A stretch of 64,000 bases of DNA, taken from assembly GCA_964413125.1 (NCBI GenBank), contig CAYPSZ010000424.1, forward strand, positions 9,140 to 73,139, read 5' to 3'. Below the pieces are notes generated by a model. That model did no database searches. It worked only from the letters and a program-made list of their open reading frames with translations, and was not told the DNA's origin. Made by a program: the position numbers and the translations under genes. The stretch's first letter is position 1, and each line of letters starts with the position of its first letter. The stretch comes from an uncultured Desulfobacterales bacterium (GTDB lineage: Bacteria > Desulfobacterota > DSM-4660 > Desulfatiglandales > HGW-15). Positions 4,265 to 45,458 of this stretch are shown here, piece after piece.

Positions 4265-4275
4265 GGCTTTGACCC

Positions 4276-15058: not shown

Positions 15059-15073
15059 GCAAGTTTGGTGCCA
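15059..15073 (-). promoter_or_regulatory. Sigma-54 (-24/-12) promoter for the metF2-hdrA-mvhD-metVF cluster
   Basis: The minus strand reads CTGGCACCAAACTTGCT, i.e. TGGCAC-N5-TTGC with canonical spacing, about 130 nt upstream of the start codon at 14931. Confidence 0.6.
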
Positions 15074-15163
15074 GGGCTGGATGGGCCTCCAAAAAGGAGT
15101 TATCCGTCTGTTTTTATATGATAAAAAAATATACAGGCAGATGGAAGAGCGGCTCCATGTAAT

Positions 15164-15208
15164 TGCAATTCAGCAAATAAGGATGTTGGCGGTACTGCAA
15201 TTCTGCAA
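15164..15208. promoter_or_regulatory. Direct repeat TGCAATTC(A/T)GCAA x2, candidate enhancer (UAS) for the sigma-54 promoter
   Basis: The 13-mers at 15164-15176 and 15196-15208 differ at one position and are spaced 32 bp apart. They lie about 90-135 bp upstream of the -24 element, with an A/T-rich tract (about 15111-15134) between. Confidence 0.3.
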
Positions 15209-15223
15209 CAGCCGTTAACACCT

Positions 15224-15946
15224 CTATTTGAACATTGTCAACCTTTTTGTCCCAAGGATCTGCCTGAAATTGGCGCCCTGGCTCACACAGCAAAGGGCAA
15301 GGGAAGTATCGACCACCCTGGTTCCTGAGACGGCGTCCAGGCCGTAGTCAAAGAGGACGGGGGTGAGAGGAGTTGTGTCGCCCAGCATTATGACATAAGC
15401 CGAGGGTGAGCACAGGGAAAGCAGACCCTCCAGCGTGTGGTTTGTAAGGGACGTCCCGGTTATTGCAACCACATCCGCTTGTGGAATGAGGTCGCCGGCC
15501 TGCTCCTCCCCAAAATCGCCTTCCCAGGGGTTTTTCTCGATGACCCACAACTCCTTTGCTTTTCTTCTCACCCTGGAAAGAAAAGGAAAATGGCCTACGA
15601 CGGCTATTCTCCTCCCTTCGCCTTTTTCCAGTATGAGATCGGCGGCATTTAACTCCAGGCAGTCCGGTTTGTCAACCGCGATAAGGGAATTTATGGCGGC
15701 CATGCCGATGGCCGCTTCAAGGATGCTGTCTGAATATGCCATCCCGGTCAGTTCTTCGGGTGTCTTTTCTAAAAGACGCCCGGGCTCTTTGACCAGGGGA
15801 GGTGTCTGACGCAGGGCGTCGCGGGGCAGGTTGGCTGCGAGCCCGCAGTTTCGGGTCAGTACGCCGGTGTGGAAAACCCCCTGGCGTACATCTCTTACCG
15901 GCGCGTCAAGATCGAGTGTGGATATCAGGTGATCGATGATTCTCAT
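15224..15946 (-). CDS. DUF364-type protein (putative metal-chelation / Rossmann-like domain)
   Basis: The ATG at 15946 overlaps the upstream stop (ATGA). The pattern MRIIDHLIS...AAINSL...IAVVGHFPF...DVVAITGTSLTNHTLEGLL matches my memory of the DUF364 family. Confidence 0.55.
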   Translation of the reverse strand: MRIIDHLISTLDLDAPVRDVRQGVFHTGVLTRNCGLAANLPRDALRQTPPLVKEPGRLLEKTPEELTGMAYSDSILEAAIGMAAINSLIAVDKPDCLELNAADLILEKGEGRRIAVVGHFPFLSRVRRKAKELWVIEKNPWEGDFGEEQAGDLIPQADVVAITGTSLTNHTLEGLLSLCSPSAYVIMLGDTTPLTPVLFDYGLDAVSGTRVVDTSLALCCVSQGANFRQILGTKRLTMFK

Positions 15947-16809
15947 TGTTGAAGCCGCCGGTTTAGGTCTTCCCATATCTTCTTGACCGCCTTGGCCCCT
16001 GCGGAGTCCCGGTTGAATTCCACAATGGTTTTTCCCTCCACCATGGCCCTTGTAAAGACGTTGTCAAAGGGAATCCTTCCCAAGACACTTATATCTTTCT
16101 CCCCGGCAAAGGACTCGATGGCCTCTCCCATAGAAGGGTTCAAGTCGAACTTGTTGACACAGAGCATTGCCGGAACCCTGAAGAATGAGGCCAGCTGGGC
16201 CACGCGTTCCATGTCGTGCTTGCCGGAGACGGATGGTTCCGCCACTATGAGCACGGCACTGGCCCCCCCCATGGAGGCAATCACCGGACAACCCACACCC
16301 GGGGGGCCGTCGGTAATAAGGAGATCCAGGCCTTTTTCTTCCACGAGTTTTTTCCCTTCCTGTCGGACCAGCGTGACCAGCTTTCCGGAATTCTCCTCGG
16401 CTATTCCGAGGCTGGCATGGGCCATGGGGCCGAACCGGGTGTCGGAAATATACCACTCCCCGCAGGTGTTGAGAGGGAAATCAATGGCCTCTTCGGGGCA
16501 GAAGTACCAGCAGACGCCGCAGCCCTCGCATTCAATGGGGTCGACCACATAATCCTCACTTATCGCGCCCCACCTGCACAGATCATGGCACAGGCCGCAT
16601 TGTGTGCATTTCTCTTTTTGGATGACCGCGGTGTGGCCTGACTCGAAATCATGCCGTTCTTTAATTTTCGGGTCCATTATCAGGTGAAGATCCGCAGCGT
16701 CAACATCCGCATCACAGAGGACCTTGTTCTCGGCAAGTGAGGCAAACGCGGCAACAACACTGGTCTTGCCCGTTCCTCCTTTGCCGCTTATGATAACAAT
16801 TTCTTTCAT
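15943..16809 (-). CDS. MinD/ParA-family P-loop ATPase with inserted 2x[4Fe-4S] ferredoxin domain
   Basis: Deviant Walker A (SGKGGTGKTS) followed by CTQCGLCHDLC and CEGCGVCWYFCP motifs. It is a paralog of the next gene. Confidence 0.8.
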   Translation of the reverse strand: MKEIVIISGKGGTGKTSVVAAFASLAENKVLCDADVDAADLHLIMDPKIKERHDFESGHTAVIQKEKCTQCGLCHDLCRWGAISEDYVVDPIECEGCGVCWYFCPEEAIDFPLNTCGEWYISDTRFGPMAHASLGIAEENSGKLVTLVRQEGKKLVEEKGLDLLITDGPPGVGCPVIASMGGASAVLIVAEPSVSGKHDMERVAQLASFFRVPAMLCVNKFDLNPSMGEAIESFAGEKDISVLGRIPFDNVFTRAMVEGKTIVEFNRDSAGAKAVKKIWEDLNRRLQQ

Positions 16810-16824
16810 TAAAACTGCTCCTTT

Positions 16825-17661
16825 TCAGCCCTTGATCTCCTCAATCCGACGAAAGAGCGCTTTGAATTCCTCTTTCCATGCAGGCATGGCTTCGACAAGC
16901 ATCTCACCCCTCGAATAGAGCTCGGCGATTTTCCTATCAAAGGGAATCTCCATCAAAACGGGAATCCCCTTGTCTTTTGCATAATCTTTGGCCCGATCGT
17001 CTCCCATATCCGACCTGTTGATGACAAGGCCGCACGGTATGCCCAGTATGTCAACGGCTCCGACGGCCAGTTTAAGGTCGTGCAGGCCGAATGGTGTGGG
17101 TTCGGTGACGAGCAGGATAAAATCCGCCCCCTTCATTGAAGCGATGACCGGGCATGAAGTCCCCGGGGGCGCGTCGATGATGGTCAGATTGCATGGGCGG
17201 GTGTAATCTCTCACTTTTCGAATAAGGGGTGGCGACATGGCCTCCCCGATGCGCAGCTTGCCGTGCACGAACTCCAAGCCGTTTTTCCTGCCCTGCTCGA
17301 GAATGCCGAGTTCACGGCTGGTTTCCGTTATGGCTTTTTCAGGGCATACCTCCATGCATCCGCCGCAGCTGTGACAGAGCTCATGGAACGGCAGAACCGT
17401 TTCGCCGATCACAATGATAGCCTTGAACTGGCATATCTCGTTGCATTTTCCACAGAGGGTGCATTTTTCCATATCCACTTGCGGGACAGGGGTGAACACC
17501 GTCTCGGTTTTCTCGATCGCCGGGTGGATGAACAGATGCGAGTTGGGTTCTTCCACATCGCAGTCAAGGAGTTGTATGTCTCCCTCTACGGAAAGGGCAA
17601 GGTTGGTGGCTACAGTGGTCTTACCGGTGCCGCCCTTTCCGCTCGCTACACTGATGATCAT
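16825..17661 (-). CDS. MinD/ParA-family P-loop ATPase with inserted 2x[4Fe-4S] ferredoxin domain (second copy)
   Basis: SGKGGTGKTT Walker A, plus CTLCGKCNEIC and CHSCGGCMEVCP motifs. Its start overlaps the upstream stop (TAATG). Confidence 0.8.
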   Translation of the reverse strand: MIISVASGKGGTGKTTVATNLALSVEGDIQLLDCDVEEPNSHLFIHPAIEKTETVFTPVPQVDMEKCTLCGKCNEICQFKAIIVIGETVLPFHELCHSCGGCMEVCPEKAITETSRELGILEQGRKNGLEFVHGKLRIGEAMSPPLIRKVRDYTRPCNLTIIDAPPGTSCPVIASMKGADFILLVTEPTPFGLHDLKLAVGAVDILGIPCGLVINRSDMGDDRAKDYAKDKGIPVLMEIPFDRKIAELYSRGEMLVEAMPAWKEEFKALFRRIEEIKG

Positions 17662-18107
17662 TATGTGCTCCTTCTCGTTTTTTGCCTGATCATATAATCA
17701 TTCAGGGCCTCCTGGAGGGTCTCCGCCGCCAAAAAGGCGCAGTGCTGATCTTCTTCAGTAAGGGCCCCAAGCTTCTTAAGGATTGATTCACCTGAAATTT
17801 CAATTAGTTCATCAGGGGTCAGCCCTTGCGCCAATTCAGCGGCAAAAGATCCGCACACCGTACTGGCCCCACAGCCGTCCGTACGGAACAGGGCCTCACC
17901 GACCTTGTCCCCCTCGAATCTCAAATAGATCTCCATGGTGTCGCCGCAGGAGCCTGTGACCCGGCCGTAACCGTCCGCATTCTCCATGGTCCCGGCATAT
18001 AAGGGGTTGAGCCATCTTTCAAAACCGGCATCACCATAGGCCTTTCTTGTCTCATCATGAATTTGATTTTGAAGTTCGTTGACAAAATCATCAAAGCTGT
18101 CGCTCAT
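17661..18107 (-). CDS. NifU/IscU N-terminal-like Fe-S scaffold protein
   Basis: Start taken at the ATG at 18107 (MSDSFDD...). The motifs GSCGDTMEIYL...DGCGASTVC...HCAFLAAETL give the three-Cys IscU/NifU-N pattern. Confidence 0.65.
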   Translation of the reverse strand: MSDSFDDFVNELQNQIHDETRKAYGDAGFERWLNPLYAGTMENADGYGRVTGSCGDTMEIYLRFEGDKVGEALFRTDGCGASTVCGSFAAELAQGLTPDELIEISGESILKKLGALTEEDQHCAFLAAETLQEALNDYMIRQKTRRST

Positions 18108-18169
18108 TTTATTGCCCCCTAATAGGACCAACTTTAATCTCTCAGCGTCTGAAATACAGTTTCTGCAGG

Positions 18170-18799
18170 TCATTGATTTTCATCCATGTCCCTGATTTTT
18201 GTCTCGATCTCCTGGACCTGCCGGCGCAGGCTGTCGGCAGCCTCTTTGAGGCGGGCAAGCTCGTCTTTCTTGGAGGCAGATCCATTTGCAGGCGCCGGGA
18301 TATCTGCGAGTTGGCTGAAACCGCCCTGGCCGCCCATACCTCGGCCCGCGCCTCTGCCGCCGCCCACACCTGCACCCATACCCCCACCCATGCCTCTACC
18401 GCCGCCCATGCCCATACCTCGCCCCATGCCTCCTCCACCCATGCCGAAGTGGCTCTGCACGCTTGGCTCCGAAGAGTGGGCAAGGGCCCCGGTCTTGTAA
18501 TGTTCAACCGCTTGACGGACATGGCCGCCGACTCCTGTAATCACTTTAATGCCCGCGGCACCGAACGTCTGAAAGGCGTTTGGTCCACAGTTCCCTGTCA
18601 GGACGGCCGATACGCCCTCGTTTGCCATCAACTGGGCCGATTGAGGGCCGGCGCCTCCACCGAGCGATACGTTGGGATTCTGAATGGGCTTATACTCCAG
18701 GGTGTCCGGGTCAATGATCAGAAAGTAGGGGCAACGCCCGAAACGCTGCTCAACCATATCATCGAGTGTCGGCCCGCTGGATGTCACTGCAATTTTCAT
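18170..18799 (-). CDS. NifX/NifB-C-terminal-like (dinitrogenase FeMo-cofactor-binding fold) protein fused to a Gly/Met/Arg-rich linker and a coiled-coil tail
   Basis: The N-terminal part MKIAVTSSG...VEQRFGRCPYFLIID...GVSAVLTGNCGPNAFQTFGAAGIKV is NifX-like. Residues 119-160 are a GMGGGG/GRGMG low-complexity stretch. The C-terminus ELARLKEAADSLRRQVQEIETKIRDM is coiled-coil, in DUF5320 style. Confidence 0.7.
   Translation of the reverse strand: MKIAVTSSGPTLDDMVEQRFGRCPYFLIIDPDTLEYKPIQNPNVSLGGGAGPQSAQLMANEGVSAVLTGNCGPNAFQTFGAAGIKVITGVGGHVRQAVEHYKTGALAHSSEPSVQSHFGMGGGGMGRGMGMGGGRGMGGGMGAGVGGGRGAGRGMGGQGGFSQLADIPAPANGSASKKDELARLKEAADSLRRQVQEIETKIRDMDENQ
18320..18445 (-). repeat. Coding low-complexity repeat (G/M/R-rich, about 42 aa)
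   Basis: The translation is GMGGGGMGRGMGMGGGRGMGGGMGAGVGGGRGAGRGMGGQGG. The same DNA produces long spurious ORFs in other frames. Confidence 0.8.
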
Positions 18800-18984
18800 T
18801 TCAAGTACCCCCTTCTTCTAAAAAGCCAAACCTGCTCTATGCCGTTTGGTAAAATATTAAGGACTTTTTTCCTTTTATCCACACCTTCCTGTCACCCTGC
18901 CCGCTTGTATGTCCACGACAAGCAGCGTTCCTGCAGAGTCTAACAGTGGTGGTATGCGGTGTTCAGACGGCTGTGTTCGACAGG

Positions 18985-19641
18985 TCATGTGCCGTGGAGT
19001 ATATCGGCCTGCTCCGCAAGCAGCGATCTGATTCGATGGGTCTTGACAGGGTAGCCCTGTATGGGGATTCCCATCCAGTCCGCATACTCCAGGAAGTCCT
19101 CGGGCTGGTCCGCCATGTACTGATCCACGTACCCTATGGCATCCAGGACGATAGCGCCCCCCGTATGCCTGGGGAAGTTCTCATTGGCAAGGCCCTGATC
19201 CCACCCCTTGAAGACCTGGTGCCGGAACTTTATCCACCCGGGCGTCATCCACCAGACTTTTTCCCCGCCGGCGACCTCCTGTGCGATCTCCTCCCTTTCA
19301 GCCTCGCTGGCCAGAACATCCATGCAGTGCGTGGCATCGACCCTAGCCACATCAGGGCCTTGCTCCTCGATGATGACTTTCATGGTCCTGGTGGGGTTGT
19401 CGGCGTTAACGTAGCAGAATTTGCCGCCATAGACCACGAGGACTTTTTCGGCCTTTTCCCTGGCCGTAGCAATGCGTTTGACCAGCTGTCTTTCCAGTTC
19501 CCGCGGGTCTTCATGGAGACCGGGGGTGGTATAGAACAGGTGATTCGTATCGAGAAATCCTTCTTTCTTGAGATAATTCAACTCCAGGCTCAGTGTGCCG
19601 CAAGAGACGACGGCAATATCTGAAAAGGACACGTGATCCAT
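18985..19641 (-). CDS. DUF1638-like protein
   Basis: 218 aa. The pattern IAVVSCGTLSLELNYL...VLVVYGGKFCYV...ATHCMDVL fits my memory of DUF1638. No other function is recognisable. Confidence 0.5.
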   Translation of the reverse strand: MDHVSFSDIAVVSCGTLSLELNYLKKEGFLDTNHLFYTTPGLHEDPRELERQLVKRIATAREKAEKVLVVYGGKFCYVNADNPTRTMKVIIEEQGPDVARVDATHCMDVLASEAEREEIAQEVAGGEKVWWMTPGWIKFRHQVFKGWDQGLANENFPRHTGGAIVLDAIGYVDQYMADQPEDFLEYADWMGIPIQGYPVKTHRIRSLLAEQADILHGT

Positions 19642-19696
19642 GATTAGACCTCCTTGAAATTGTGAGTGATGCGCAAGGGCGGGGGCCGCACAAAAA

Positions 19697-20032
19697 TCAG
19701 TGAAAAACGGAGCTGAGACGAATGGCTCCCCGCGGGCACGCCTCTACGCAGAGGCCGCAACCCATGCACATTGCCGGGTCGACCCTTGCAGTTTCATGCA
19801 GTTTAATGGCTCCTGTGGGACAGGTATCACAACACAATCCACATGAAACACATTCGTTGGGGGCCACAACAGCACGAAGGGTGGAAGCTCTCGAGCCCTG
19901 CTCCATGGCATGGATTCGGGTTTCCAGGGAACGTAAACGTCCTTTGAGGCTTGTTATGCGGACCCTTAACTCCTGGTGTTCTTTTACGGCGTGATCAGTA
20001 TGGGCAAGCTTCATCTTGTCGATTATTAACAT
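19697..20032 (-). CDS. 2x[4Fe-4S] ferredoxin with N-terminal coiled-coil segment
   Basis: 111 aa with CVSCGLCCDTCP and CMGCGLCVEACP motifs. The N-terminal ~45 aa are heptad-like (ELRVRITSLKGRLRSLETRIHAME). Confidence 0.75.
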   Translation of the reverse strand: MLIIDKMKLAHTDHAVKEHQELRVRITSLKGRLRSLETRIHAMEQGSRASTLRAVVAPNECVSCGLCCDTCPTGAIKLHETARVDPAMCMGCGLCVEACPRGAIRLSSVFH

Positions 20033-33815: not shown

Positions 33816-34508
33816 CTAACGCTCTCGAATAGTCGCGTTTATGCGAATGTTAATAACAGGCATCTCTTCGTAATTGGTTTTAAAGTTGAGATACCCCCTG
33901 AAAGAGCCGGCCGCATCGGGTAGGTTGGTGAAATAGACCTTGAACCTCCGGCCCTTTTCCAATTCCTCGAGACGATACGTGAGCTTGCCTCCCAAGTTGG
34001 ACTCCGCCGGCTCCAGTTCCAAGGGTTCTTCAAGTCCTGACGTGATTTCAATGCTACTCGATGATTGTCTTCCTTGAACACCTCTAAACATAACGTACCT
34101 GGGCTTCAACATTATGGGAACTACCACGAAGCTTCGGATCCCGATGTTGAACCTCTCGTGAACCGGGTCATTGGTGTAAACCACGGCCGTATTGTAGATG
34201 CTTCCTTGATACCCTTTGGTATTTACAACAAGTGTGATCTTCCCTTCCCCTCCCGGAGGAATGGTCCTGTCGTAGGACGCCACCGCACACCCTCAACCCG
34301 GTGACACCTTGTGAATCTGTAATGTGGCGTTTCCACGGTTAACGATAATGAAGTCATGGGACAAACGAGTTCCCTCCTTGACTTCTCCTGTGTCGACGGT
34401 GTGTTCCTCCATAAAAAGGGCCGGTTCCGGCGTCCGGCTGTTTGCAACCCATGGGGTACCCAAAAGGAACATTGAGGAGCAGCATAAAATGAAAAACAAA
34501 GACTTCAT
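33816..34508 (-). CDS. Secreted DUF1573-like protein with in-frame UGA (candidate selenocysteine) at the CGC motif
   Basis: The ATG at 34508 has a GAGGGG RBS and encodes a signal peptide (MKSLFFILCCSSMFLLGTPWVANS). The ORFs 34293-34625 and 33816-34283 share a frame and are separated only by the TGA at 34293-34295. Read-through gives IHKVSPG-U-GCAVASYDRTIPPGGEGKITLVV, matching the DUF1573 pattern I..V..SCGCT.....I.PG..G.I.V. Confidence 0.6.
34255..34284 (-). other. Imperfect hairpin 9 nt downstream of the UGA (candidate bacterial SECIS)
   Basis: The mRNA is GGUGG-C-GUCCU[ACGAC]AGGAC-CAUU-CCUCC, with an inner 5-bp stem, a 5-nt loop, and an outer 4-5 bp helix. A second hairpin, UUCCUC[CGG]GAGGGG, follows directly. 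Confidence 0.3.
34293..34295 (-). other. In-frame TGA, candidate Sec codon
   Basis: The plus strand reads tca, which is TGA on the minus strand. It aligns with the first Cys of the family CGC motif. Confidence 0.55.
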
Positions 34509-34677
34509 TGATTTCCCCTCTTGACCGAAGAATTTGTCTTGCGTCCGTTCCAACAATTTGCGTTGAACCTGAACAGCCTTCACGGCCTTAACAAGCCTCA
34601 GCATGCCAAGGCTATTCATTACCATAAACCTAGGAAACCTGCAAGTTGGCTGGCCTGCGGATCTTCTCCCGTTCTGA

Positions 34678-35985
34678 TTAAGTCACTTCCGTATCTGCCT
34701 TTGACTTTTCTAAGACCTCTTCTCCTAGACGGCCTCCGTTAGCCGGCAAGACTTCCGCAAGCGCTTCGTCCAAGTTCCCAGCCGCTGTAACAATGGTTTG
34801 CACGCCCGCATTGGACAGAACATATCCCGGGCCTTTTCTCGAGAGGTCTTCCTTCATCAAGACTTTATCCACATTCCGCCCGGCCAGCCACTCCGCCACT
34901 CGAATCCCCTTCGCGGTCTCAACGCCCTTGTAGGGGTTCTCCAACAGGATCTTTTCTTCCATACGCTCATCAGAAAGACGAATCGTTACGAAAGTAAAGT
35001 ACGGGGACTCGCCGAAGTGACTGCTCACGCCTCCGGAGGAATCTATCAGAGGGACTGCAATTCGGATACGGGTTTTGGACAGTGGCTCATAGTGAATCAT
35101 CACGCCCTCAACATGAGGCACTTCTTTACGTATCATGGATTCCAGAGATTCACTGGTCTGATGGGCTTTTTGAAGGTCATCTGTTCTAAGGAGTACATTC
35201 ACCTGAAGAAACCTAAAACGACCCGCGCTCCTCCCCGTAAGAGAGGCCACTTCGGCAACCAAAGGGTGCTGCTCCACAATTCTTCTGACCAGAGCAAGGG
35301 TTTCAAAGTCCACGGATGCATCCAGCAATACCCGCATGCCGTCGGAAAGAAGCTTCCATCCCGCCCGGGCAATAAAAACGACCACCAGGGCGGCTGCAAT
35401 TTGGTCGATGGAAGCGCCCAAGAAAGAAAACTCCCATCCTGCATAGCCGATAAAAACAGAAACCAGCACCACCATGGAGGAAAGAACATCCACCTGCCGG
35501 TGCCGGCCCTCCGCAATCAGGGTGGGCGATCCCGTCCGCCTCCCTACGGCGAGGGCATACCGGCCGAAAAGATAGATGGCCAGGACGCCCGCAAGAAGGA
35601 GGGCTACAACAATCCCAGAGATCTGTGGCCGGCCTGACTCTCTTGTAAGAACCTCCCGGGCAATTTCATAGCCGGCGAAAAAAATGCTCATAGCAACAAC
35701 AACAGAGATAACATTTTCAATCTTATAAAGGCCGAGTGGAAAGGAGGGCGTCTTTTTGGTCGAAAGCTTCAGCCCTCCTAAAAGGAGAAGGGAAGCAACG
35801 GCGTCGATTCCCGAATCTATAGCCCCGGCGGTCACAGCCAGGCTGCTCGAACAAAAGGCAAGGATGCCTTTCATGGTTGCAAGTCCCAGGTTTAACAAGA
35901 ACGCATAGAGAGCCACCTTCTGGACAAGCCTTGTTTCTTTATCGACGCCTTTGGTGGACGCTTCATGCTTATATGAGGCATTCAT
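34678..35985 (-). CDS. Cation diffusion facilitator (CDF) metal efflux transporter fused to a C-terminal NifX/NifB-like domain
   Basis: 435 aa. There are six TM-like segments with CDF motifs (SLAVTAGAIDSGIDAVAS, HRQVDVLSS) and a cytoplasmic CDF domain. The C-terminal part RIAVPLIDSSGGVSSHFGESPYFTFV...VDKVLM...GPGYVLSNAGVQ is NifX-like. Confidence 0.7.
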   Translation of the reverse strand: MNASYKHEASTKGVDKETRLVQKVALYAFLLNLGLATMKGILAFCSSSLAVTAGAIDSGIDAVASLLLLGGLKLSTKKTPSFPLGLYKIENVISVVVAMSIFFAGYEIAREVLTRESGRPQISGIVVALLLAGVLAIYLFGRYALAVGRRTGSPTLIAEGRHRQVDVLSSMVVLVSVFIGYAGWEFSFLGASIDQIAAALVVVFIARAGWKLLSDGMRVLLDASVDFETLALVRRIVEQHPLVAEVASLTGRSAGRFRFLQVNVLLRTDDLQKAHQTSESLESMIRKEVPHVEGVMIHYEPLSKTRIRIAVPLIDSSGGVSSHFGESPYFTFVTIRLSDERMEEKILLENPYKGVETAKGIRVAEWLAGRNVDKVLMKEDLSRKGPGYVLSNAGVQTIVTAAGNLDEALAEVLPANGGRLGEEVLEKSKADTEVT

Positions 35986-36426
35986 GGCTCACTGTAGTTA
36001 CAAAGTTCTTTTGCTTGTTTTTATACCACAACACCCTTCAAGGACTAAGAAAAAACCGACCCCTTTTCCACACTTCCTCTATTCGCGGGTTTCCTCCCGT
36101 CGCCCACCAAGCCTTTCCGGATGGGCTAACGAGGCCAGACCGGCGCCTTTGGCTCAAGGCAAAGGTTTTTCAAAATGGCCGTTGCATTGAATTTGACAAG
36201 GCCCTTGCCATACACTATGAGAAAGGGACGAATTATAATAATATCAAAAGTTTAATAGAAAAGGTTTTGGCAGTGCCGTCATGCTGGATTTATGCGCCCA
36301 GAGTATAGGGACGGCGGGGTGCCGGGTCAGACAAATGGAGATGGATTTTCGTAACGATCGAGAAACCCATGATTTGAATTCCTGCGAGTTTGAGTCTTAG
36401 AGTTAGGCTCGCAGACTCAATTTGTA

Positions 36427-36456
36427 AGAGTCTCAAAGGCTCATAGATGAGACTCT
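36427..36456 (-). terminator. 9-bp stem-loop overlapping the usher stop codon, first of several interleaved inverted repeats (possible operon terminator)
   Basis: AGAGTCTCA (36427-36435) pairs with TGAGACTCT (36448-36456) around a 12-nt loop. Further repeats GCGAG/CTCGC and TTGAGTCT/AGACTCAA lie at 36384-36420. There is no strong U-tract. Confidence 0.3.
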
Positions 36457-39400
36457 GAATGCCCCACAAAGTCAGGTAGTTCATATTCCTGAGGCTCCTG
36501 CGAGACCGGGATACGCGTCTGCTGTTCCTGTTCGGGAAAAGTCAACTCAGAAGGGATGGTCCGGGGATCAAGCCTCACCCGAACTGCCCCTGGCCTGATA
36601 TGGCCAAGATAAAAACTGCCGTCACCGGCTGTGATGGAATCAATGACGGTCTCCGAGTCCGAATCTGACACAGAGGTGACCCGCACTCCTGAAACCGGTT
36701 CCACTTTTCCGCTCGGCTTCTTGACCAGAACAGAGCCGGCTATATGATGGACGGGAGTCAGCGCAAGATCCACATGGGTGCGCCGCCCCTCCTCCAGGCA
36801 GGCGCCCTGCTGACCATGCATGATATCGTAAATGGCAGGGACCGTATCCGGGTCCAGGGAGACCTTGACCGTTTGCGCGATGGATGTAAATGGAAGCATA
36901 TACTGGCCGTGGACGTCCGTCACAGCCATTTCCCGACCATCGAGCAGGATGCTCACCCCTTCCACCCCCCCTTCACCGGGATCGAGCCGGGCATTAATAT
37001 TGCCGTCCACAAAGACCCTTCCGGCGATGCCTCCAAGGTCAGGGCTGATTCTTCGGCTCTCTACCCTGGTCAACCTGCCCCGGTCCCGGCTGAAAAGTTC
37101 GGAGATCGTCAAAAACAGTCCGACCTGCCATTCCCGGTTTTGATACCGGGCGAGCAGCCCCAAACGGGTGCCTTTGGAGCGACTGAACCGGTACTCGCAG
37201 CGATGTTCAAAAAATGGATCCCCGCTGTGCAAATCTTTGCCTAGCTCGGTCCTCATTTGCAATGGGAGCCCGAAGGCATTGCTCAAGGAGTGAATACCGG
37301 AAAGCCGTTCCCTGTTGTTGGTTTTCCAATAATTGGCCCGAAGGCTTCCCAAACCGGGAAGATAGGTTGCAAGAGACGCGGTGGTGTGGCGGGTTTCGGT
37401 CAAAGAAATGCCCGGCAGGCGCAGGCCTTGAAAAAAATCAGTTTCCCTGGTTAAACGGACATCGTCGCCGAAGGAGTGATATACACTGAAGTTAAGCCTT
37501 GGAAGCAGGTTGCTGTCCACTTCAACAAACAAGAGCCTCCTGGACGAATCTTCCCAGTCCGGGTCCATCCAGTCCAACCCTAAACTTATACGGGTCTTGG
37601 GAAACATTTTGGAGTGCAGCCCTGCATGGCCCAGCCTGGCGCTAAAGGTCTCGCTTCTCAGGCGTCGGACATTGTCCCGGACGCTGGCAAAGGCCCCTGA
37701 AAAAGACCACATAGGATGCAGATGAAACTCTCCGTTGACCACATATCCTATGCGATCCCGCAGATTTCGGTTGCCCCCGTCAAAAAAATCGGGCTGATAG
37801 ACAAAGTATCTGGCATAGAATGAAGTCTTTTCGAGGGGATAGAGAGATAGATCGAGTCTTGCTGCCCAATCCGCATAACCCGACCCGTCCCGCTCCCGGG
37901 CCTGCACTGCTGAAAAGTCAGCCAGGACTTGAGATCGGTCAAAAGGCTGCCACGTCAACTGGGCTCCGGCGTGCCGGCTTTGCAGGGGATAATTGCGCTC
38001 ATCCTTCTGGTAAAGAAGTGGCTTGCTGACGAGGTCATAGAACTTATACTGGCCGGCGAAGGTCGTCCCGATGGTCAGATTGCTTCTCAGCCCGTACAAG
38101 GCCCGGCCCCCCGCAAACATTCCACTCGAAGACCAGTCCTGAAATCCTCTGTTGGTCCCGAATCCGCCGAGTAGGGCCAGGCTGCCTTCAGGAACCAGGC
38201 TGCTGGTTCCCAGTATCTGTTTTTCTATGATGGTTTGAACTCCGTCCGGATCGGTGATGATGATCTCAATGGTGTTTAAACTGCCCGGAGCCAGGCTGAC
38301 CGCCTCGAATTCATAGCGTCCCAGATCAGGATTGTCCGGCAGCGAGCTTAGGATCTCATCCGTATCGATCAAGCGGCCGTTAACAAATAGCTCCACCATT
38401 GAACCGACTCGCGCCAGACCCTCGAATGGGATCTGCCGCTGGAAAAGGTTCCGTAGAACTTGTTTGGATCGATCATTTCTTCCCTTTTCATTCGCCCCTA
38501 AAAGGCTGTCAAAACGCAACCCGGCCAGCTTCACAGTTGGAAAAGTGATATCGTTGAGGCCAAAGGTGGAATCCCCGACCATGAAACGCGACGCGCCAAG
38601 GGCCCTAGTCCATTCAGCCCTGTTGAGGCGGATGAAGGGGCTGCTGAGCGGATTGCCGGAATCGTTCCAGATATAGGAAGGCTGCGAAAACTCTAAAATA
38701 TAGCGACCTTTGGCCAGATCTCCCCAGAATCTTTGCTTAAGAGAATCGAGACTTATTTTGCCCGGTGACCTTTCATCTACGGGCTGATACTGAATTCTTG
38801 CCTCTGTCTGGACAAAATCAATTCCCCAATGCCGATATTCGGGCTGCGCCGCAGGCAGTTTTTCAGGCACCTTGATCCTGATTTCGTCGGTCTTGATAGA
38901 CAGCAGTGACTTCCGCTCTTCTCGCTTCCACACCGGAAAAAACCGGCTTGTCTCAGCCACGAACGCATAAAGCGCGTTATCCCAAGACAGCTCCAGGTCG
39001 AGCATCTGAGCCACCGTCTCGGCTGGAACATAGACTTCCGGCTGCATGCTGATATCGGATACGGCCTGGATCAGTTTCAACGGGCGGGTTGCCCCGTCAG
39101 TCTGCAAGACCTGTTCTTTGATCTTAACTCTTTGGGGAGGGCTATCAGGCAATTTCAGGACCAGTTGGTCTTCTTCTGCTTCGTGTTCGACTTTAAGCGC
39201 CCTAAAAAGTCTGAAAAGGGGTAAGTATCGTTCGCCCTTACTGTCTTGAACGACATCCAGATCAAAGAGTTCCAGCTTATGCCAAAACCCCTTCCCTTTT
39301 AGGGAGAAGCCGACCACATCGGTTTCAGCCATGGCCAAGCCGGGTTCTGACTCTTTGACCTCAGCTGTATTTTGTTCGGAGTTTCTGTGCCGGCACACTT

Positions 39401-39588
39401 GAAGGGCCGGTGCCGGCTTCGATTCCTGCTGCTCCGGGGCTTTTTTTTTTCGACCCCTGCATTTTGTGAGGAACCGGAACTCCGGCTCGGGTTTGAAAGG
39501 CCTCCCCTGACTGGGACATGAACAGCACAATAACCCCCAATAAAAGGAGATTACAGAGGATGATGCTGAACCGGAGGCAGAAGGTCAT
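36441..39588 (-). CDS. Usher-like outer-membrane protein, atypical, with C-terminal carboxypeptidase-regulatory-like beta-sandwich repeats; reading frame broken at an A10 tract
   Basis: The main ORF (36441-39530, 1029 aa) has an usher-like middle region: FMVGDSTFGLNDITFPTVKLAGLRF...IPFEGLARVGSMVELFVNGRLI...GRYEFEAVSLAPGSLNTIEIIITDPDGVQ. Long amphipathic beta-barrel-type strands follow. It has no signal peptide. That is supplied by a 75-aa ORF (39361-39588) in the adjacent frame, whose ATG overlaps the chaperone stop (ATGA). The two frames meet at A10 (39441-39450). Confidence 0.6.
39441..39450 (-). repeat. Homopolymeric A10 (T10 on the plus strand) at the frame junction of the usher gene
   Basis: It is read directly: gctccggggc tttttttttt cgacccctgc. 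Removing one A fuses ...MQGSKKK to APEQQESKPAP... in frame. Confidence 0.9.
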
Positions 39589-40382
39589 TGAATAGTTACC
39601 TGCGCGCTTCCATGCTTTTCAAGCCCTTTCCCTTTGGCCTTGCAATAGACCTCAAGGGTGTAACGGCCCTTGCGGAGATCGCTCTTGATGGTCCTGGCAT
39701 AATGCACGGTGCTTTCAGGCATGATGTAGGAATGAACAAATCTTCCGTCCACAAGCACCTTTCCCGCCGGGTCGATAAGCTCATAATGCCCGTCCAGCAA
39801 TAAGTGGCCGGAGCCGCTGTTGACAATGGTCACCTGAAATTGAAAGCCCTGATCAGTTGCCTGGGTAGAGATCTCTTTGACCTGAAAATCATACCTCACG
39901 TCCCCATTGACTCCGAATATTGGGACAACAATGGCCGGGATGACAGCCAGGTTCATAACCCGCCCATGCCTGTCTTTGCTTGTGGCGATGTTGGCTTCAA
40001 GCGACTCCAGTTCCATGGCCCCCCAATAGACCTGTTCCCGGAGTTTTCCTCTGGGAACGACCACGAAGCGGACCCGTTGGCTGGTTTTCGGAGCGAGCGA
40101 AAGCTCCTTCGGATTAAACTTGATCCAGGGAGCAAGAGAGTTCTCATCAGGCGGAACCAAGCTGAAATTGCCGCTGCTTCCATAGGTGAAATGACTGGCC
40201 ATGATCCGGTATCTGACCGCTTCACTCCCGGTGTTGGTAATGATGAACTGGCCCGAAGGCCTTCCCCGTTCAAAGGACACTTCAAGAAATGCCGGGGATA
40301 TGGACAGGGCCCCGTCGGCGGCATGAGACCAGAGAAGACAACCAAGACAAGCCATGATCAGACCTTGGAGAAGTTTTTGCAT
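39585..40382 (-). CDS. Periplasmic PapD-like pilus chaperone candidate
   Basis: 265 aa with a signal peptide (ACLGCLLWSHA/ADG). The N-terminal domain pattern LSISPAFLEVSF...GQFIITNTGSEAVRYRI...IKFNPKELSLAPKTSQRVRFVV resembles the PapD_N / MSP fold, and a second beta-rich domain follows. Confidence 0.55.
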   Translation of the reverse strand: MQKLLQGLIMACLGCLLWSHAADGALSISPAFLEVSFERGRPSGQFIITNTGSEAVRYRIMASHFTYGSSGNFSLVPPDENSLAPWIKFNPKELSLAPKTSQRVRFVVVPRGKLREQVYWGAMELESLEANIATSKDRHGRVMNLAVIPAIVVPIFGVNGDVRYDFQVKEISTQATDQGFQFQVTIVNSGSGHLLLDGHYELIDPAGKVLVDGRFVHSYIMPESTVHYARTIKSDLRKGRYTLEVYCKAKGKGLEKHGSAQVTIQ

Positions 40383-40441
40383 GTCAGCCTCCTAGAGTAT
40401 TTTTTAGATGCGACCGCTGCCTGGTGAGTAATGAAAGAGGG

Positions 40442-40478
40442 CCGAGGGTGAAAATGCTCCAAGACCCGCGGCCCTCGG
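40442..40478 (-). other. GC-rich stem-loop between the subunit genes and the chaperone gene (possible attenuating terminator or mRNA stabiliser)
   Basis: CCGAGGG (40442-40448) pairs with CCCTCGG (40472-40478), and an alternative GGCCG/CGGCC pairing exists. It lies in the 158-nt gap between 40541 and 40382. Confidence 0.3.
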
Positions 40479-40540
40479 TACAGAACAAACGCCCGAATGT
40501 ATAGTTTTGCTAAAAACCCTTCTCAAGTCTCATCAATGAG

Positions 40541-41104
40541 TTAAGGCAGAACCATGGCCGCCATCTTGACGAAACCGCTGTATTCCCCCATGGGTTTTTC
40601 AGGATCATCCTGGTTCCAGGTAAAGGTTAAAGTCACCTCCTGACTGAAGTGATTGTTCTGGGAACTCTCCAGGCCAAGGGAACTCGTGATAAGAGTTGGA
40701 AATCCGTTGATATCTCCTGCAGCGGTGGTATAAGGCAACTCCGAAGCTGCCGTACCCAGCGGGCTGCCGTTCACTAGGTATACCCCAACGGGTGCAGAAA
40801 TATTCAAGGGGATGGGAGCAACTTCAGGAGCTGTAGGGTCATTACCTTTGTATAGATCAGATGCTTCAGCATAAATCTGGATTTGCTGGGTATTGGCATC
40901 GACCCTAAAAATACATTCCGCAGTGAAGTCGCCGGTCTGTACGCTTCCGGCATCTACATGCGCCTGTCCTGAGAGGGTAATGTTCGGGCTGACGGTAACA
41001 AAGACGTGGGATGTAGCTTCACTGGTTTCATCCGCCATTGCCGCCGGAGCTACGAAAAAACACAATCCGGCCACCAAGGCCATAACAATGAGTAACCTTT
41101 TCAT
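40541..41104 (-). CDS. Secreted fibre-subunit candidate B (paralog of 41165-41713), no recognised family
   Basis: The ATG at 41104 sits 6 nt after AAGGAGG. The signal peptide is MKRLLIVMALVAGLCFFVAPAAMA/DE, the protein is beta-rich, and the C-terminal strand motif is WNQDDPEKPMGEYSGFVKMAAMVLP. Confidence 0.5.
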   Translation of the reverse strand: MKRLLIVMALVAGLCFFVAPAAMADETSEATSHVFVTVSPNITLSGQAHVDAGSVQTGDFTAECIFRVDANTQQIQIYAEASDLYKGNDPTAPEVAPIPLNISAPVGVYLVNGSPLGTAASELPYTTAAGDINGFPTLITSSLGLESSQNNHFSQEVTLTFTWNQDDPEKPMGEYSGFVKMAAMVLP

Positions 41105-41164
41105 AGAAGCCTCCTTTATTCCTGACATTCGGGCGTTTGACTGGCAAAAGGGGCTCGCTGCTTT

Positions 41165-41713
41165 TCAAGGTTCGATAAAACAAACCAGCTTGATCTTGGC
41201 CGTATACTTGCCGGCCGGTCTTTCCAAGTTTTCCTGGTTCCACTCCACGGAAACAAAAACCTGATGGTTGAAGGTAAGAGAATCAGGACTCGTAAAGGAA
41301 AGTTTTTGGGACTGATAGGTTTCCAGCCCGTCGATAGGGCTGCCGGGGCCCAGAAATCCTGCCGTCCTGGTGGCCCCCTCAGCCCCGACTGGATCGATTT
41401 TCGCTCCGGCCGAGGTATTCAAGGGGATAGCCGTTACTTTAGGGTGGTCTTTTTCAAAGTGAAGATCCGTGGCCTCAATATACATCTGCACTTCCGAGGT
41501 GTTGGCAGCTACGTCAAATTCTGCTTCGCAGTCAATGGTGCCGGTTCCTGAAAAATCAATGAGGATTTTCGGCTCAACCGCCGCCACGGCCAGTTCGGTC
41601 TTGTAATTGACCACGGCTTCGGCCGTCGAGGAGCTGGAATAGGCCCTGACCTGGATCTGCCAGGCTGCCGTTAACAACAAGAGAAGCAGTAGGGAGACAG
41701 TTCTCCTTCTCAT
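41165..41713 (-). CDS. Secreted fibre-subunit candidate A, no recognised family
   Basis: A signal peptide (MRRRTVSLLLLLLLTAAWQIQVRA) and a GAGAGGG RBS are present. It shares the blocks F.VdANT...Q.Y.EA.DL......P.v..IPLN.SA and WNQe..ErPaGkY...iKl....P with subunit B. Confidence 0.5.
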   Translation of the reverse strand: MRRRTVSLLLLLLLTAAWQIQVRAYSSSSTAEAVVNYKTELAVAAVEPKILIDFSGTGTIDCEAEFDVAANTSEVQMYIEATDLHFEKDHPKVTAIPLNTSAGAKIDPVGAEGATRTAGFLGPGSPIDGLETYQSQKLSFTSPDSLTFNHQVFVSVEWNQENLERPAGKYTAKIKLVCFIEP

Positions 41714-41899
41714 AGAGCCCTCTCAAGCGGTAACGCATTAATTATGTTGAAAACGGATAGAAATGGCTTTGCTAGCCCCCCAAGGCAAGGGCCCCGGGTA
41801 GGCATTGTGCAGGCAATTTGAGTCGTTCCAAGTTCATGGCTGACCCAAAAACGGGAAGATAGAAAACAGGTGAGTTTACTTTGTACTTTGATTGTTAAA

Positions 41900-41914
41900 G
41901 CAATATTTATGCCA
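41900..41914 (-). promoter_or_regulatory. Sigma-54 (-24/-12) promoter for the fibre operon
   Basis: The minus strand reads TTGGCATAAATATTGCTTT, i.e. TGGCAT-N5-TTGC with canonical spacing, about 190 nt upstream of the ATG at 41713. Confidence 0.55.
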
Positions 41915-42245
41915 ATAAGAACCCAGAACGATAGTTAGATATTTCAGCAAGTTACAAACGCCAAAAAAGTCGCTGGGTCATCAGCGTGTAGACTTATTCC
42001 AATAAGTGAGAAAACTATTTCCACTTTTGGGAAGAAAAATACACGCTATTAACCCTACAGTATGGTCTGCAGGAAGGATCACAGTGTGAAGGTGGGGGAG
42101 GTTCGGTGTGCGACATTGAAGTCCCGCGTTTAGACAAAGAAAAATGAACTCATATTATTTCATTACCGTAGAGTGGGGGGCCGCTTTCTCTACGGCCGTG
42201 AATGGCTCGTGAAAGCCGATGCCTATTGAGCCGGTTGTTCTCCCT

Positions 42246-42274
42246 TTGACCTTCGGGCTGTTTTCATTCATACT
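42246..42274 (+). promoter_or_regulatory. Candidate sigma-70 promoter for the HD-domain gene
   Basis: TTGACC (42246-42251), a 17-nt spacer, then CATACT (42269-42274). Confidence 0.3.
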
Positions 42275-42364
42275 GGCATACTATGTCACGAGATACCCCG
42301 TTTGCCTTGACCTGAATGAAGGGAAATCTGATTGCCTCGGGACTGCAAAAGGAGCGCCGCCCAT

Positions 42365-42907
42365 ATGATCCCACCGCCTGACATGTGCCTGTCACTCATG
42401 GAGAAGATCGGCATGCCTGAGCATATCCGCCGGCACTCCATCATGGTTGAACAAGCGGCGCTGATGATCGGGGCGGCTCACATTCAGTCGGGAACCAGGC
42501 TCTCCGAAGAGGCCATAAGGGCCGGCGCTCTTCTCCACGACATTGCCAAGGCGGATTGCTTCGAAACCGGCGAAGACCATGCCTCCAAGGGGAGAGACAT
42601 GTGTCTGGATCTGGGGTTCGGCGAGATCGCGGCCATCGTGGGTGAGCACGTGAGGCTTGTAGACTTCCGCCCGGAAGGCGAAATACTTGAAAAGGAAATC
42701 GTCTTTTACGCTGATAAAAGGGTCAATCACGATCGGATAGTAAGCCTCGAAGAGCGACTGGAGGACTTGATCCTGCGATATGGAAAAGGTCGCCGGGATA
42801 TCATTGAGAGGATTGAAAGAAACTTCGCGGTTTGCAGGGACGTGGAACGTAAACTGTTTTACGGGCTTGACTTCGGCCCCGAGGCCCTGGCCCGACTCAT
42901 TTCATAA
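42365..42907 (+). CDS. HD-domain phosphohydrolase (YqeK-like size and motifs)
   Basis: The ATG at 42365 is preceded by AAGGAG. The translation has HSIMV...AGALLHDIAK...GEHV...YADKR, an HD metal-binding pattern, in about 180 aa. Confidence 0.55.
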   Translation: MIPPPDMCLSLMEKIGMPEHIRRHSIMVEQAALMIGAAHIQSGTRLSEEAIRAGALLHDIAKADCFETGEDHASKGRDMCLDLGFGEIAAIVGEHVRLVDFRPEGEILEKEIVFYADKRVNHDRIVSLEERLEDLILRYGKGRRDIIERIERNFAVCRDVERKLFYGLDFGPEALARLIS

Positions 42908-43536: not shown

Positions 43537-43625
43537 GTTTGAACGCATCACGGCAGGTTTGCTGAAACCTTTTCTTGATTTATGGACCTGTCATAAAGGT
43601 AAGCACAATCAGATCTCGGATCCGA

Positions 43626-45458
43626 ATGAAAAACTGTTTTCTTGTAATACTGTTTCTGGCTGTTGTGTGGTCCCCGTTTATTGGGACGGCATCTGATCAG
43701 ACATCTATAGAGGTGGATGTTATCCACTCGCAGGACCAATACCCTGCAGGGGGAACCTATTTCGTATACCTTCAAATACGAATCCCGGATGACTGGTATA
43801 TCTATGGGCCAGGGCCGAATAAGACCGGGTCGCCTCTGATTCCCACCTCAATATCCTTTGAAAAGGCCCCGGGTGTCGATGTTCGAGACATACTGTTTCC
43901 TAAACCTTCAACGCAGGACGTGTCCTTTCAGCAAGACCCCCTTCTCCTGTTCAAAGGAACAATACCCGTTCGGATAAGCTTAGACGTGGACCACGGCGCT
44001 TCTGCCGGACCTCGAGTGATTGAAGGGGAACTGTCCTACCAGGCCTGTACCGCGACCTTGTGCATGCCTCCGGAGACCACCTACATAGAACTGCAATTGA
44101 CTGTCGCCCCGAAAAAGGCCTTGGGATCGGTCATAAATGATGATCATATAATCCGATCCTCTGCATCCGTGCCGGCGGGTGCGGCTGTAACCCCCGGCAC
44201 CTCGTCCGGTCCGGGAATCCTGTTCACCCTGGCTGCACTCTTCCTGGGCGGACTGGCTTTGAACCTCACCCCTTGCATTTACCCTCTGATCCCCATCACT
44301 GTCTCCTATTTCGGCGGCGCCTCCACCCCTTCTCGGGGTCGAACCCTGTTACATGGGGGTCTCTACCTTGCAGGGCTGGCTTTCACCAACTCGCTACTCG
44401 GCGTAATTGCGGCCCTCTCCGGTGGAATGCTCGGAGCCGTTCTCCAAAGCCCGTGGGCACTGGTTCTTGTGGCGGCGGTTCTCCTGGCCATGGCTCTCAG
44501 CTTTTTCGGTCTTTGGGATCTTCGCCCTCCGACCGCTCTCAACAGACTCGCGTCACGGCGGGTCGGCGGTTATTTGGGAACGGCTTTTATGGGACTCACA
44601 CTCGGTGTAGTGGCTGCGCCCTGCATAGGACCTTTCATTTTAGGACTCCTGGCTTATGTGGGACAAAGAGGCGACCCGGTAATCGGATTCATCTACTTCT
44701 TTGCCCTGAGCCTGGGCATGGGACTCCCGCTGGCCCTTTTGGGGGTCTTCTCGGGAGCCATTGACCGGCTGCCCGGGTCCGGCGACTGGATGGTGTGGGT
44801 GCGAAAGTTAATGGGCTGGGTCCTGGTAGGAATGGCCGGGTACATGATCCTGCCCCTCCTTCCCCACGCCCTTTCCGGAGCAAGGCTTCCGGCCCTGGCG
44901 GCCTTGGCGGCGGGCATACACCTGGGGTGGATAGAGCGGACCGGGCGATCGAGCAGCGGTTTTCTCCGGTTTCGAAACGCAGCCGGCCTGATTCTCGTCG
45001 CAGGCGGCCTGTTTTTCTTCATCCAAGCGGGTTTTCATAGGGCACCCGTCCCCTGGACGCCATATGAGAGGGGCATGCTGAGAGAGGCTGCGGATCAGGG
45101 CAGGCCTGTAATGCTGGACTTTTCCGCGGACTGGTGCATGCCCTGCAGGGAAATGGACCAGCGTGTCTTCACCGATCCCCGGATCGTGGAGGCCGCCCGG
45201 CGGTTCGCAGCCATTCGCGTGGATTTGACCCACCGGCGCCCCGAGCATGAAGGCGTGAGAGAGCGCTTTTCCGTTAGAGGAGTTCCCACAGTGGTCTTTA
45301 TTGATCACCTGGGGCGCGAGATCCGCTCACTCAGAGTCGAATCCTATGTGGATCCTTCGGTTTTCCTCCAACGTATGGAGCGCGCACTGGAGGCGTCCAC
45401 CGGTCCTGCAGGCGCCGCGCCTTCCGCATCCCGGCATCTCTTACAGGTCACAACCTAA
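43626..45458 (+). CDS. dsbD: Thiol:disulfide interchange protein DsbD (alpha, beta and gamma domains)
   Basis: The ATG at 43626 encodes a signal peptide. The N-terminal domain has YQACTATLCMPP, the TM core has LNLTPCIYPLIP and VAAPCIGPFILG, and the C-terminal thioredoxin domain has DFSADWCMPCREM. Confidence 0.8.
   Translation: MKNCFLVILFLAVVWSPFIGTASDQTSIEVDVIHSQDQYPAGGTYFVYLQIRIPDDWYIYGPGPNKTGSPLIPTSISFEKAPGVDVRDILFPKPSTQDVSFQQDPLLLFKGTIPVRISLDVDHGASAGPRVIEGELSYQACTATLCMPPETTYIELQLTVAPKKALGSVINDDHIIRSSASVPAGAAVTPGTSSGPGILFTLAALFLGGLALNLTPCIYPLIPITVSYFGGASTPSRGRTLLHGGLYLAGLAFTNSLLGVIAALSGGMLGAVLQSPWALVLVAAVLLAMALSFFGLWDLRPPTALNRLASRRVGGYLGTAFMGLTLGVVAAPCIGPFILGLLAYVGQRGDPVIGFIYFFALSLGMGLPLALLGVFSGAIDRLPGSGDWMVWVRKLMGWVLVGMAGYMILPLLPHALSGARLPALAALAAGIHLGWIERTGRSSSGFLRFRNAAGLILVAGGLFFFIQAGFHRAPVPWTPYERGMLREAADQGRPVMLDFSADWCMPCREMDQRVFTDPRIVEAARRFAAIRVDLTHRRPEHEGVRERFSVRGVPTVVFIDHLGREIRSLRVESYVDPSVFLQRMERALEASTGPAGAAPSASRHLLQVTT

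Follow-up and report, generated by a model that had tools for sequence, protein, structure and literature searches.

The OS_HP2 family ("Olavius symbiont hypothetical protein 2") was first described, as a new family of selenoproteins, in 2007 (Zhang & Gladyshev, Nucleic Acids Res, Table 2; PMC1976440), was listed by the same authors in their ocean-metagenome paper as "OS_HP2, pfam07610, UxC" with 354 Cys homologues (PLoS Genet 2008; PMC2398784), and appears in reviews as "DUF1573 domain-containing protein, UGC" (PMC9312934, 2022; PMC13188914, 2026). The gene considered here lies at 33816-34508 on the minus strand of a 64,000-nt stretch of contig CAYPSZ010000424.1 (hereafter the window) and is very probably a genuine OS_HP2 gene, the in-frame UGA of which specifies selenocysteine (Sec). 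With Cys substituted for the UGA-encoded residue, its product matched the NCBIfam model NF041425, "OS_HP2 family (seleno)protein", with 104.9 bits (curated cut-off, 100; E 2.1e-30), residues 35-128 aligning to profile positions 3-97 of 98. Sec falls on the first Cys of the C-G-C motif, which is the U-x-C arrangement of OS_HP2, and four homologous loci (L002, L084, L085, and L086) have C-G-C there. An earlier note on this DNA, unaware of DUF1573 as a selenoprotein family, had proposed a candidate new selenoprotein. Because the product scores above the NF041425 cut-off and OS_HP2 has been in selenoprotein lists since 2007-2008 (PMC1976440; PMC2398784), the claim of novelty was wrong: the gene is a further member of the known family that public annotation reduces, wrongly, to a 155-aa fragment (P0001). 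Nothing essential distinguishes it from other OS_HP2 members, with which it shares the PF07610 domain, a U-G-C whose Sec replaces the first Cys of C-G-C, a score exceeding the curated cut-off and, judged by its closest relatives, the host group (Desulfobacterota, the kind of host in which OS_HP2 was originally discovered); its extra C-terminal β-sandwich is shared with the subfamily. Its public annotation as two open reading frames (ORFs) and, in this genome, the adjoining CDF exporter are further points of difference. The value of the result is, thus, chiefly one of annotation: "selenoprotein" was right and "new family" was not, a NCBIfam model being already in existence.

The two minus-strand ORFs concerned, 34293-34625 and 33816-34283, share their reading frame; a single TGA (34293-34295) interrupts it, with three codons (GGG TGT GCG) between this TGA and the GTG at 34283. 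Reading through yields ...RGNATLQIHKVSPG*GCAVASYDRTIPPGGEGKITLVVNTKGY..., i.e., ...NRGNATLQIHKVSPG-U-GCAVASYDRTIPPGGEGKITLVVNTKGY..., in which the motif has the context SPG-U-GC. Frame and translation agree in this respect with the layout, the shared frame and the read-through sequence described in the earlier note; as to its further statement that the downstream ORF has neither an ATG nor a ribosome-binding site of its own, gene callers nonetheless use the GTG at 34283, at which the public protein P0001 (155 aa, NCBI) starts. Full-length homologues aligned from a Met equivalent to ATG 34508 to the same end point, and all of them possess a hydrophobic N-terminus equivalent to MKSLFFILCCSSMFLLGTPWVANS; the encoded protein is predicted to be exported. 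The gene is continuous across 34293-34295 (see Table 1 for its features).

How consistently this gene is split became apparent from a protein search that returned 128 homologues. Among the best 120 of these, whole-query coverage was found for only 6, the other 114 spanning 54-67% of the query, i.e., its C-terminal two-thirds. All partial homologues that were fetched or aligned begin with M/V-A-x-[FY]-D-R, at the GTG four codons past the TGA, and judging from this common N-terminus gene callers cut them at one and the same site. Three full-length entries (P0003, P0012, and P0120) have W at the Sec column; the underlying DNA, fetched for two of the three, contains TGA in both cases (L087 for P0003, L088 for P0120). 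At the nucleotide level, TGA occupies the Sec column in the window, in the closest genomic relative (L001, a Desulfatiglandales metagenome-assembled genome; 71% identity), in L087, and in 80/80 metagenome loci (L004-L083; 42-52% identity); the distant L088, at 30% identity, has TGA there as well and was counted separately from the 82 close loci (L001, L087, and the 80 metagenome loci). In these 82 loci, which stem from many samples and are 42-71% identical, both flanks of the TGA are conserved in protein sequence, and the Cys of U-G-C (the column of 34287-34289) is invariant. One of them, L005, has U-R-C in place of U-G-C (2042-2050); the middle residue of the motif is, therefore, not strictly invariant. 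Cys, encoded by TGC, was present at the Sec column in L002 (41% identity), L084 and L086 (51%), and L085 (32%). TGA conservation together with four Cys loci is the pattern by which selenoproteins are recognized bioinformatically (Zhang & Gladyshev; PMC1976440). The placement of the UGA where the C-G-C of DUF1573 has its first Cys, as well as the check suggested along with it (Cys or TGA at this column in homologues), thereby found support in 82 loci plus L088 on the one hand and in the four distant Cys forms on the other. As far as sequence comparison can establish it, the TGA is conserved and forms a Sec/Cys pair, and selenium is probably incorporated at 34293-34295.

The domain structure of the product fits a single uninterrupted protein. 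PF07610 was matched (again with Cys in place of the TGA) with 67.4 bits (gathering threshold 26.1; E 1.1e-18) over residues 33-119; thus, the TGA (residue 72) falls inside a single domain. The Cys homologue P0004 (51% identical) stood in for the window protein in structure prediction; its AlphaFold model had a mean predicted local distance difference test (pLDDT) score of 90.6 and consists of an N-terminal helix followed by two β-sandwiches, both domains being all-β. Strands 65-72 and 77-81 are joined by a turn that contains the C-G-C, the strands of the second domain (121-230) have pLDDT values >90, and the region of the signal peptide forms a lone low-confidence helix (residues 7-17) preceding the first sandwich. 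The second sandwich is conserved in homologues, including a KTNY(P/E)E motif. Foldseek matched the P0004 model to tandem Ig-like domains (HYDIN/ASH-type and titin-type Ig) and to an uncharacterized Porphyromonas gingivalis structure (PDB 2qsv), with no enzyme fold and no thioredoxin fold among the matches; a phmmer search against PDB sequences gave no match, i.e., similarity of the window protein to solved structures is below phmmer detection and the kinship is by fold alone. Fold and family membership (OS_HP2/DUF1573) are, thus, clear. Cys-containing DUF1573 proteins (from Bacteroidota, Planctomycetota, and others, including PDB 2qsv) have in common with it the Ig-like/ASH-type sandwich, the C-G-C turn, the PG..G.I motif following it, and secretion, and differ in that Cys takes the place of Sec and no selenocysteine insertion sequence (SECIS) is needed. 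Thioredoxin-fold oxidoreductases, with CxxC or UxxC at the N-terminus of a helix, are the usual home of redox selenoproteins. Assignment of the window protein to the thioredoxin-fold thiol:disulfide oxidoreductases was rejected: it comprises two Ig-like sandwiches, its motif lies in a β-turn and is UxC rather than UxxC, and no thioredoxin Pfam family was matched by it.

Decoding of UGA as Sec in bacteria involves a hairpin within the coding sequence (CDS), and the region 3′ of the UGA was analyzed using a gap-free alignment of 75 nt, counted from the TGA, of 63 non-redundant loci. A single consensus structure emerged from RNAalifold: columns 35-54 form a hairpin (AUCCCCCC-CGGN-GGGGAGGGA; hairpin 2 in Table 1), which was paired in 97.7% of the cells. 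Its codons proved to be constrained at synonymous sites when compared with backgrounds taken from the remainder of the same genes: Gly at columns 46-48 is encoded by GGG in 57/63 loci (background 26%), Gly at columns 52-54 by GGA in 55/63 (25%), Pro at columns 37-39 by CCC in 48/63 (32%), and Glu at columns 49-51 by GAG in 52/63 (48%), the Gly codon of the loop (columns 43-45) being free to be GGA, GGC, or GGU. Hairpin 2 was also more stable than a null of resampled synonymous codons (mean z -1.91; +0.27 for control columns 58-105). Compensatory synonymous changes were observed (CCG with GGC in L041, CCU with GGA in L065 and L070), and a Pro-to-Ala exchange (GCC) in the Sec homologue L088 (30% identity) is matched by GGC. 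There is, thus, constraint at the RNA level downstream of the UGA. Two of the Cys forms, L084 (1640-1714) and L086 (335-409), retain the full hairpin sequence (ATC CCC CCC GGA GGG GAG GGA), apparently the fossil of a SECIS that outlived a recent change from Sec to Cys, and in the more distant, older Cys forms L002 and L085 the constrained codons have been lost.

The consensus bacterial SECIS (bSECIS) has a loop of 3-9 nt with G in one of its first two positions, a stem of 4-16 bp, a minimum free energy (MFE) of at most -7.5 kcal/mol, and, for "most" elements, a distance of 16-37 nt between UGA and loop (PMC13188914). Across the family, hairpin 2 has a loop size in this range in 63/63 sequences, the loop G in 62/63, and a stem of proper length in 61/63; its mean MFE is -11.4 kcal/mol, with 61/63 sequences reaching -7.5, and 59/63 agree with the consensus in everything except spacing. 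In the window, loop (GGGA(GG)), seven-pair stem, and loop G likewise conform. What hairpin 2 and the consensus bSECIS share is, therefore, a stem-loop within the CDS 3′ of the UGA, a small apical loop starting with G-G, and a G-C-rich upper stem of 4-7 bp; what differs is the spacing of 37 (9 sequences), 38 (11), or 39 nt (43), at or just past the range, with a second, variable hairpin filling the gap. Because of the strong synonymous-site constraint, hairpin 2 is likely to be the SECIS. The peptide motif specified by its codons, PPGGEG, is the most conserved one, so that constraints on RNA and on protein overlap. A SECIS that probably resides within these codons, unusually far from the UGA, and that persists as a fossil in recent Cys copies would then be the element to which SelB binds.

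The hairpin emphasized in the earlier note was a different one (34255-34284). It does fold, at -7.5 kcal/mol, its real core being the 5-bp stem at 34264-34278 (hairpin 1), yet it is not the conserved one; conservation applies to the second hairpin, 34241-34261, which had been mentioned only in passing. That 34255-34284 is the SECIS after all, and that the C/G-rich hairpin is a mere by-product of Pro-Pro-Gly-Gly-Glu-Gly codons, appears improbable to us. The loop of hairpin 1 lies 19 nt past the UGA and, hence, within the 16-37 nt range, a near-invariant G (column 25) is found in or near this loop, and the region was more stable than synonymous resamplings among the 63 homologues (mean z -1.65). 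Its register, however, was paired in only 58% of the cells, which led to its rejection as a conserved family element; its outer stem draws on the CCUCC tract of hairpin 2, with which it thus competes; the loop G was in place in only 7/63, and none of the 63 sequences agreed with the bSECIS consensus in all respects, loop G included. Moreover, neither coding nor hairpin 1 explains the third-position constraints of GGG, GAG, and GGA (columns 48, 51, and 54), and exactly these codons were lost in the older Cys forms. Because the region is more structured than the synonymous null, hairpin 1 may be a spacer or a lower element of the SECIS.

Several observations weigh against Sec insertion at this locus, and against hairpin 2 as its signal. 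Neither a tRNA-Sec (ARAGORN, 0 tRNAs) nor selA, selB, or selD (Pfam, 42 ORFs) was found within the 64-kb window, and a search of the literature turned up no experimental evidence of selenium in any OS_HP2 protein. The 74 nt past the UGA folded no better than dinucleotide shuffles (z = +0.93), and between 34150 and 34350 there was no Rfam match at E ≤ 10 apart from a chance hit to CRISPR-DR17 on the opposite strand. In the window, the apical loop of hairpin 2 (approximately 34251-34254) lies 38 nt past the UGA, 1 nt over the consensus range, and the hairpin is weak, with three G-U pairs and an MFE of -7.4 (columns 34-57) or -6.9 kcal/mol (34241-34262; consensus limit, -7.5). Because the homologues are related, the counts of conserved synonymous sites do not represent independent events. 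If the TGA were a true stop, owing to a pseudogene, to a sequencing or assembly error, or to the presence of two small genes, a 71-residue fragment carrying the signal peptide and a 155-residue protein starting at GTG 34283 would result; this is how public annotation has it (P0001), and the Sec machinery missing from the window and the unremarkable local fold would agree with it. We nevertheless consider the probability of a true stop to be very low: the same TGA recurs, with both flanks conserved, in the 82 close loci, one Pfam domain and one modelled β-sandwich extend across it, and homologues have Cys at the site. Public records, by splitting the gene at the UGA, keep a 155-residue fragment devoid of the signal peptide and of half of the first domain. 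A genome-wide reassignment of TGA (genetic code 4 or 25), with Trp or Gly rather than Sec as the residue, is scarcely credible. Some metagenome pipelines did translate the codon as W (P0003, P0012, and P0120, see above), but the column aligns with Cys in homologues, not with Trp or Gly, and a constrained hairpin 3′ of the UGA would be needless. TGA is, in addition, the commonest ordinary stop in the window, where it terminates 14 of the 33 Pfam-supported genes at normal lengths; UGA 34293-34295 is, therefore, a case of local recoding.

Taken as a selenoprotein gene, the locus would function as follows. A single gene would give rise to an exported 230-residue protein of two Ig-like β-sandwich domains, belonging to the OS_HP2 subfamily of DUF1573. 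UGA 34293-34295 would be decoded as Sec, most likely as in other bacteria, i.e., by SelB with Sec-tRNA(Sec) recruited by an mRNA hairpin inside the CDS, here presumably hairpin 2, 37-39 nt past the UGA and preceded by the less conserved hairpin 1. The mature protein would present its U-G-C triad where a tight turn connects two β-strands, and the likeliest chemistry in the cell envelope would be either redox, through a selenylsulfide that forms reversibly, or chelation by selenolate and thiolate, with reducing power probably delivered via DsbD/CcdA and thioredoxin-like partners.

Table 1. Features of the OS_HP2 locus and of the adjoining segment (window coordinates).
Feature	Position	Strand	Remarks
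OS_HP2/DUF1573 selenoprotein, full read-through CDS	33816..34508	-	230 codons including UGA = Sec72 (probable); TAG stop 33816-33818
Shine-Dalgarno-like GAGGGG	34515..34520	-	6 nt 5′ of ATG 34508; putative function, from reading of the sequence
Signal-peptide-like hydrophobic N-terminus MKSLFFILCCSSMFLLGTPWVANS, ~23 residues	34440..34508	-	From sequence; cleavage site putative
In-frame UGA, probably read as Sec	34293..34295	-	Residue 72, first position of U-G-C; comparison of TGA/Cys column
TGT, Cys of U-G-C	34287..34289	-	Presumed Sec partner (selenylsulfide or chelate)
DUF1573 (PF07610) Ig-like β-sandwich with U-G-C turn	34152..34412	-	Residues 33-119; Pfam match
Second β-sandwich, no Pfam family	33819..34151	-	Residues ~120-230; alignment and model of P0004
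Hairpin 1, GUCCU-ACGAC-AGGAC	34264..34278	-	5 bp; starts 15 nt past UGA; -4.6 kcal/mol alone
Hairpin 2, UUCCUCC-GGGA(GG)-GGGGAAGGGA	34241..34261	-	Codons I-P-P-G-G-E-G; RNAalifold consensus; probable SelB-binding SECIS
CDF exporter	34678..35985	-	Gene of the additional segment
Segment gene	36441..39530	-	No significant family match
Segment gene	39585..40382	-	No significant family match
Segment gene	40541..41128	-	No significant family match
Segment gene	41165..41713	-	No significant family match

The genomic surroundings were compared by tblastn of 13 window neighbours against all homologous loci. The CDF exporter gene ends 169 nt upstream of the OS_HP2 gene on the same strand, and the earlier note had taken this adjacency as a hint of periplasmic metal or chalcogen handling. 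No CDF neighbour was present in any homologous locus. In the closest relatives (L001 and L091), the gene order is PPDK - FabH - DsbD - ... - HD-domain gene - OS_HP2; the same order from PPDK to OS_HP2 is found in the window (49016 down to 33816), where approximately 7.7 kb (34600-42300) absent from L001 and L091 lie between the HD gene (42332-42907) and OS_HP2. This segment contains the CDF gene and a cluster of genes for secreted proteins. Because it is missing in the closest relatives, the CDF adjacency is specific to the lineage and carries little functional weight, and the hint based on it falls away. The CDF protein itself has a C-terminal Nitro_FeMo-Co (dinitrogenase FeMo-cofactor-binding-like) domain (residues 319-412), an unusual fusion, and among NCBIfam models it comes closest, at a score below the cut-off, to MamB, a CDF protein of magnetosomes. 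The other four genes of the segment encode two paralogous secreted proteins of ~190 aa, one secreted protein of 265 aa, and one protein of 1029 aa with sub-threshold Pfam matches only (SdrD_B, CarboxypepD_reg); by analogy, the layout resembles a chaperone-usher-type surface-fibre cluster.

Other neighbours recur. A full-length DsbD (43575-45458, plus strand; DsbD_N, DsbD_TM, and thioredoxin domains) is encoded 9 kb upstream of OS_HP2, a few genes away, and its position in the gene order is kept in the closest relatives, including L091. In about 10 loci, OS_HP2 is surrounded by genes for thioredoxin-domain proteins, a DsbD_TM/CcdA-type protein, rhodanese, and MauE/DoxX, and the same context contains arsenic-related genes (ACR3 arsenite exporter, ArsP permeases, and an ArsR-type regulator). 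This redox/arsenic context is common to the Cys homologues L084 and L086 and to a complete Desulfobacteraceae genome (CP070700.1, 3260304-3272786; L089, 1-12483), in which ArsP, two Thioredoxin_3, two thioredoxin-domain genes, DsbD_TM, and an FeS protein are followed by the split OS_HP2, rhodanese, MauE/DoxX, and an ArsR-type helix-turn-helix protein and, further on, by Thioredoxin_3, MarR, and a second ArsP. The ACR3 is bona fide (375 bits; cut-off 282.8) and is encoded directly upstream of the homologues in the ~10 loci and of L084.

Because of these redox/arsenic neighbours, the signal peptide, and the U-G-C turn, we favour, with somewhat less than even confidence, a role of OS_HP2 in selenol/thiol redox chemistry of the envelope, with reducing power supplied by DsbD/thioredoxin. 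The disulfide or selenylsulfide formed by two chalcogen residues that are adjacent or one apart can be strained and reactive, and redox motifs of the CXC/CGC kind are represented by a CGC peptide mimic of protein disulfide isomerase, by the CPC of Mia40, and by the C-terminal GCUG of thioredoxin reductase. With these motifs U-G-C shares a resemblance and not membership, its scaffold being an Ig-like envelope sandwich. Against the redox role speaks that neighbours differ by lineage: in about 18 loci and in a Desulfatiglans genome (L090), they are Rex, RNase H, and flavin reductase, and the inference of redox partners, therefore, rests on a subset of the loci.

The main alternative, possible although rather unlikely, is that the protein is a genuine selenoprotein in which U-G-C is no redox couple and instead ligates a periplasmic metal or metalloid (e.g., arsenite, selenium species, or a soft metal), the protein being a binding or hand-off partner of efflux systems. 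ACR3 directly upstream in the ~10 loci and in L084, ArsP permeases and an ArsR-type regulator flanking the gene in L089, the CDF exporter adjoining it in the window, and an Ig-like sandwich in place of a thioredoxin fold are all compatible with such a ligand. Yet the CDF adjacency is unique to the window, the ACR3 context is limited to a minority of lineages, and within these very clusters thiol-redox genes (thioredoxins, DsbD_TM, MauE/DoxX, and rhodanese) are more numerous; in addition, a metal site with just the two ligands of a U-x-C turn would be minimal, and binding is putative. Returning to the redox role, a more far-reaching and distinctly speculative version would have OS_HP2 as the periplasmic selenol/thiol end-point of an undescribed envelope module that acts, outside the cytoplasm, on species of arsenic, selenium, or sulfur and is composed of a CcdA/DsbD-type conduit, thioredoxin-like proteins, rhodanese, MauE/DoxX, and often an ArsR-type regulator, next to ACR3/ArsP. 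A literature search combining selenoprotein, MauE, and rhodanese found no paper on an L089-type module together with OS_HP2. For the family as a whole, the pointers to function are, thus, the probable SECIS on the PPGGEG codons and neighbours concerned with envelope thiol redox and arsenic resistance, not the CDF exporter.

Two script screens of the window yielded no second gene with an in-frame TGA; candidates were judged by eye, with no homology search, and were dismissed on account of their peptide context and their overlap with longer ORFs, being off-frame or non-coding in appearance. None was seen either in the genes of the large anaerobic-energy-metabolism cluster at 1-19700, a cluster typical of Sec-rich Desulfobacterota. 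It comprises an HdrA-like/MvhD (FlpD) fusion (5-2701, plus strand), CCG-domain HdrB/C-like genes, two MTHFR genes (8893-9954 and 14059-14931), and a 1020-aa HdrA-like flavoprotein (10949-14011), and also encodes NifU-like, ParA/NUBPL-type Fe-S, and Nitro_FeMo-Co proteins.

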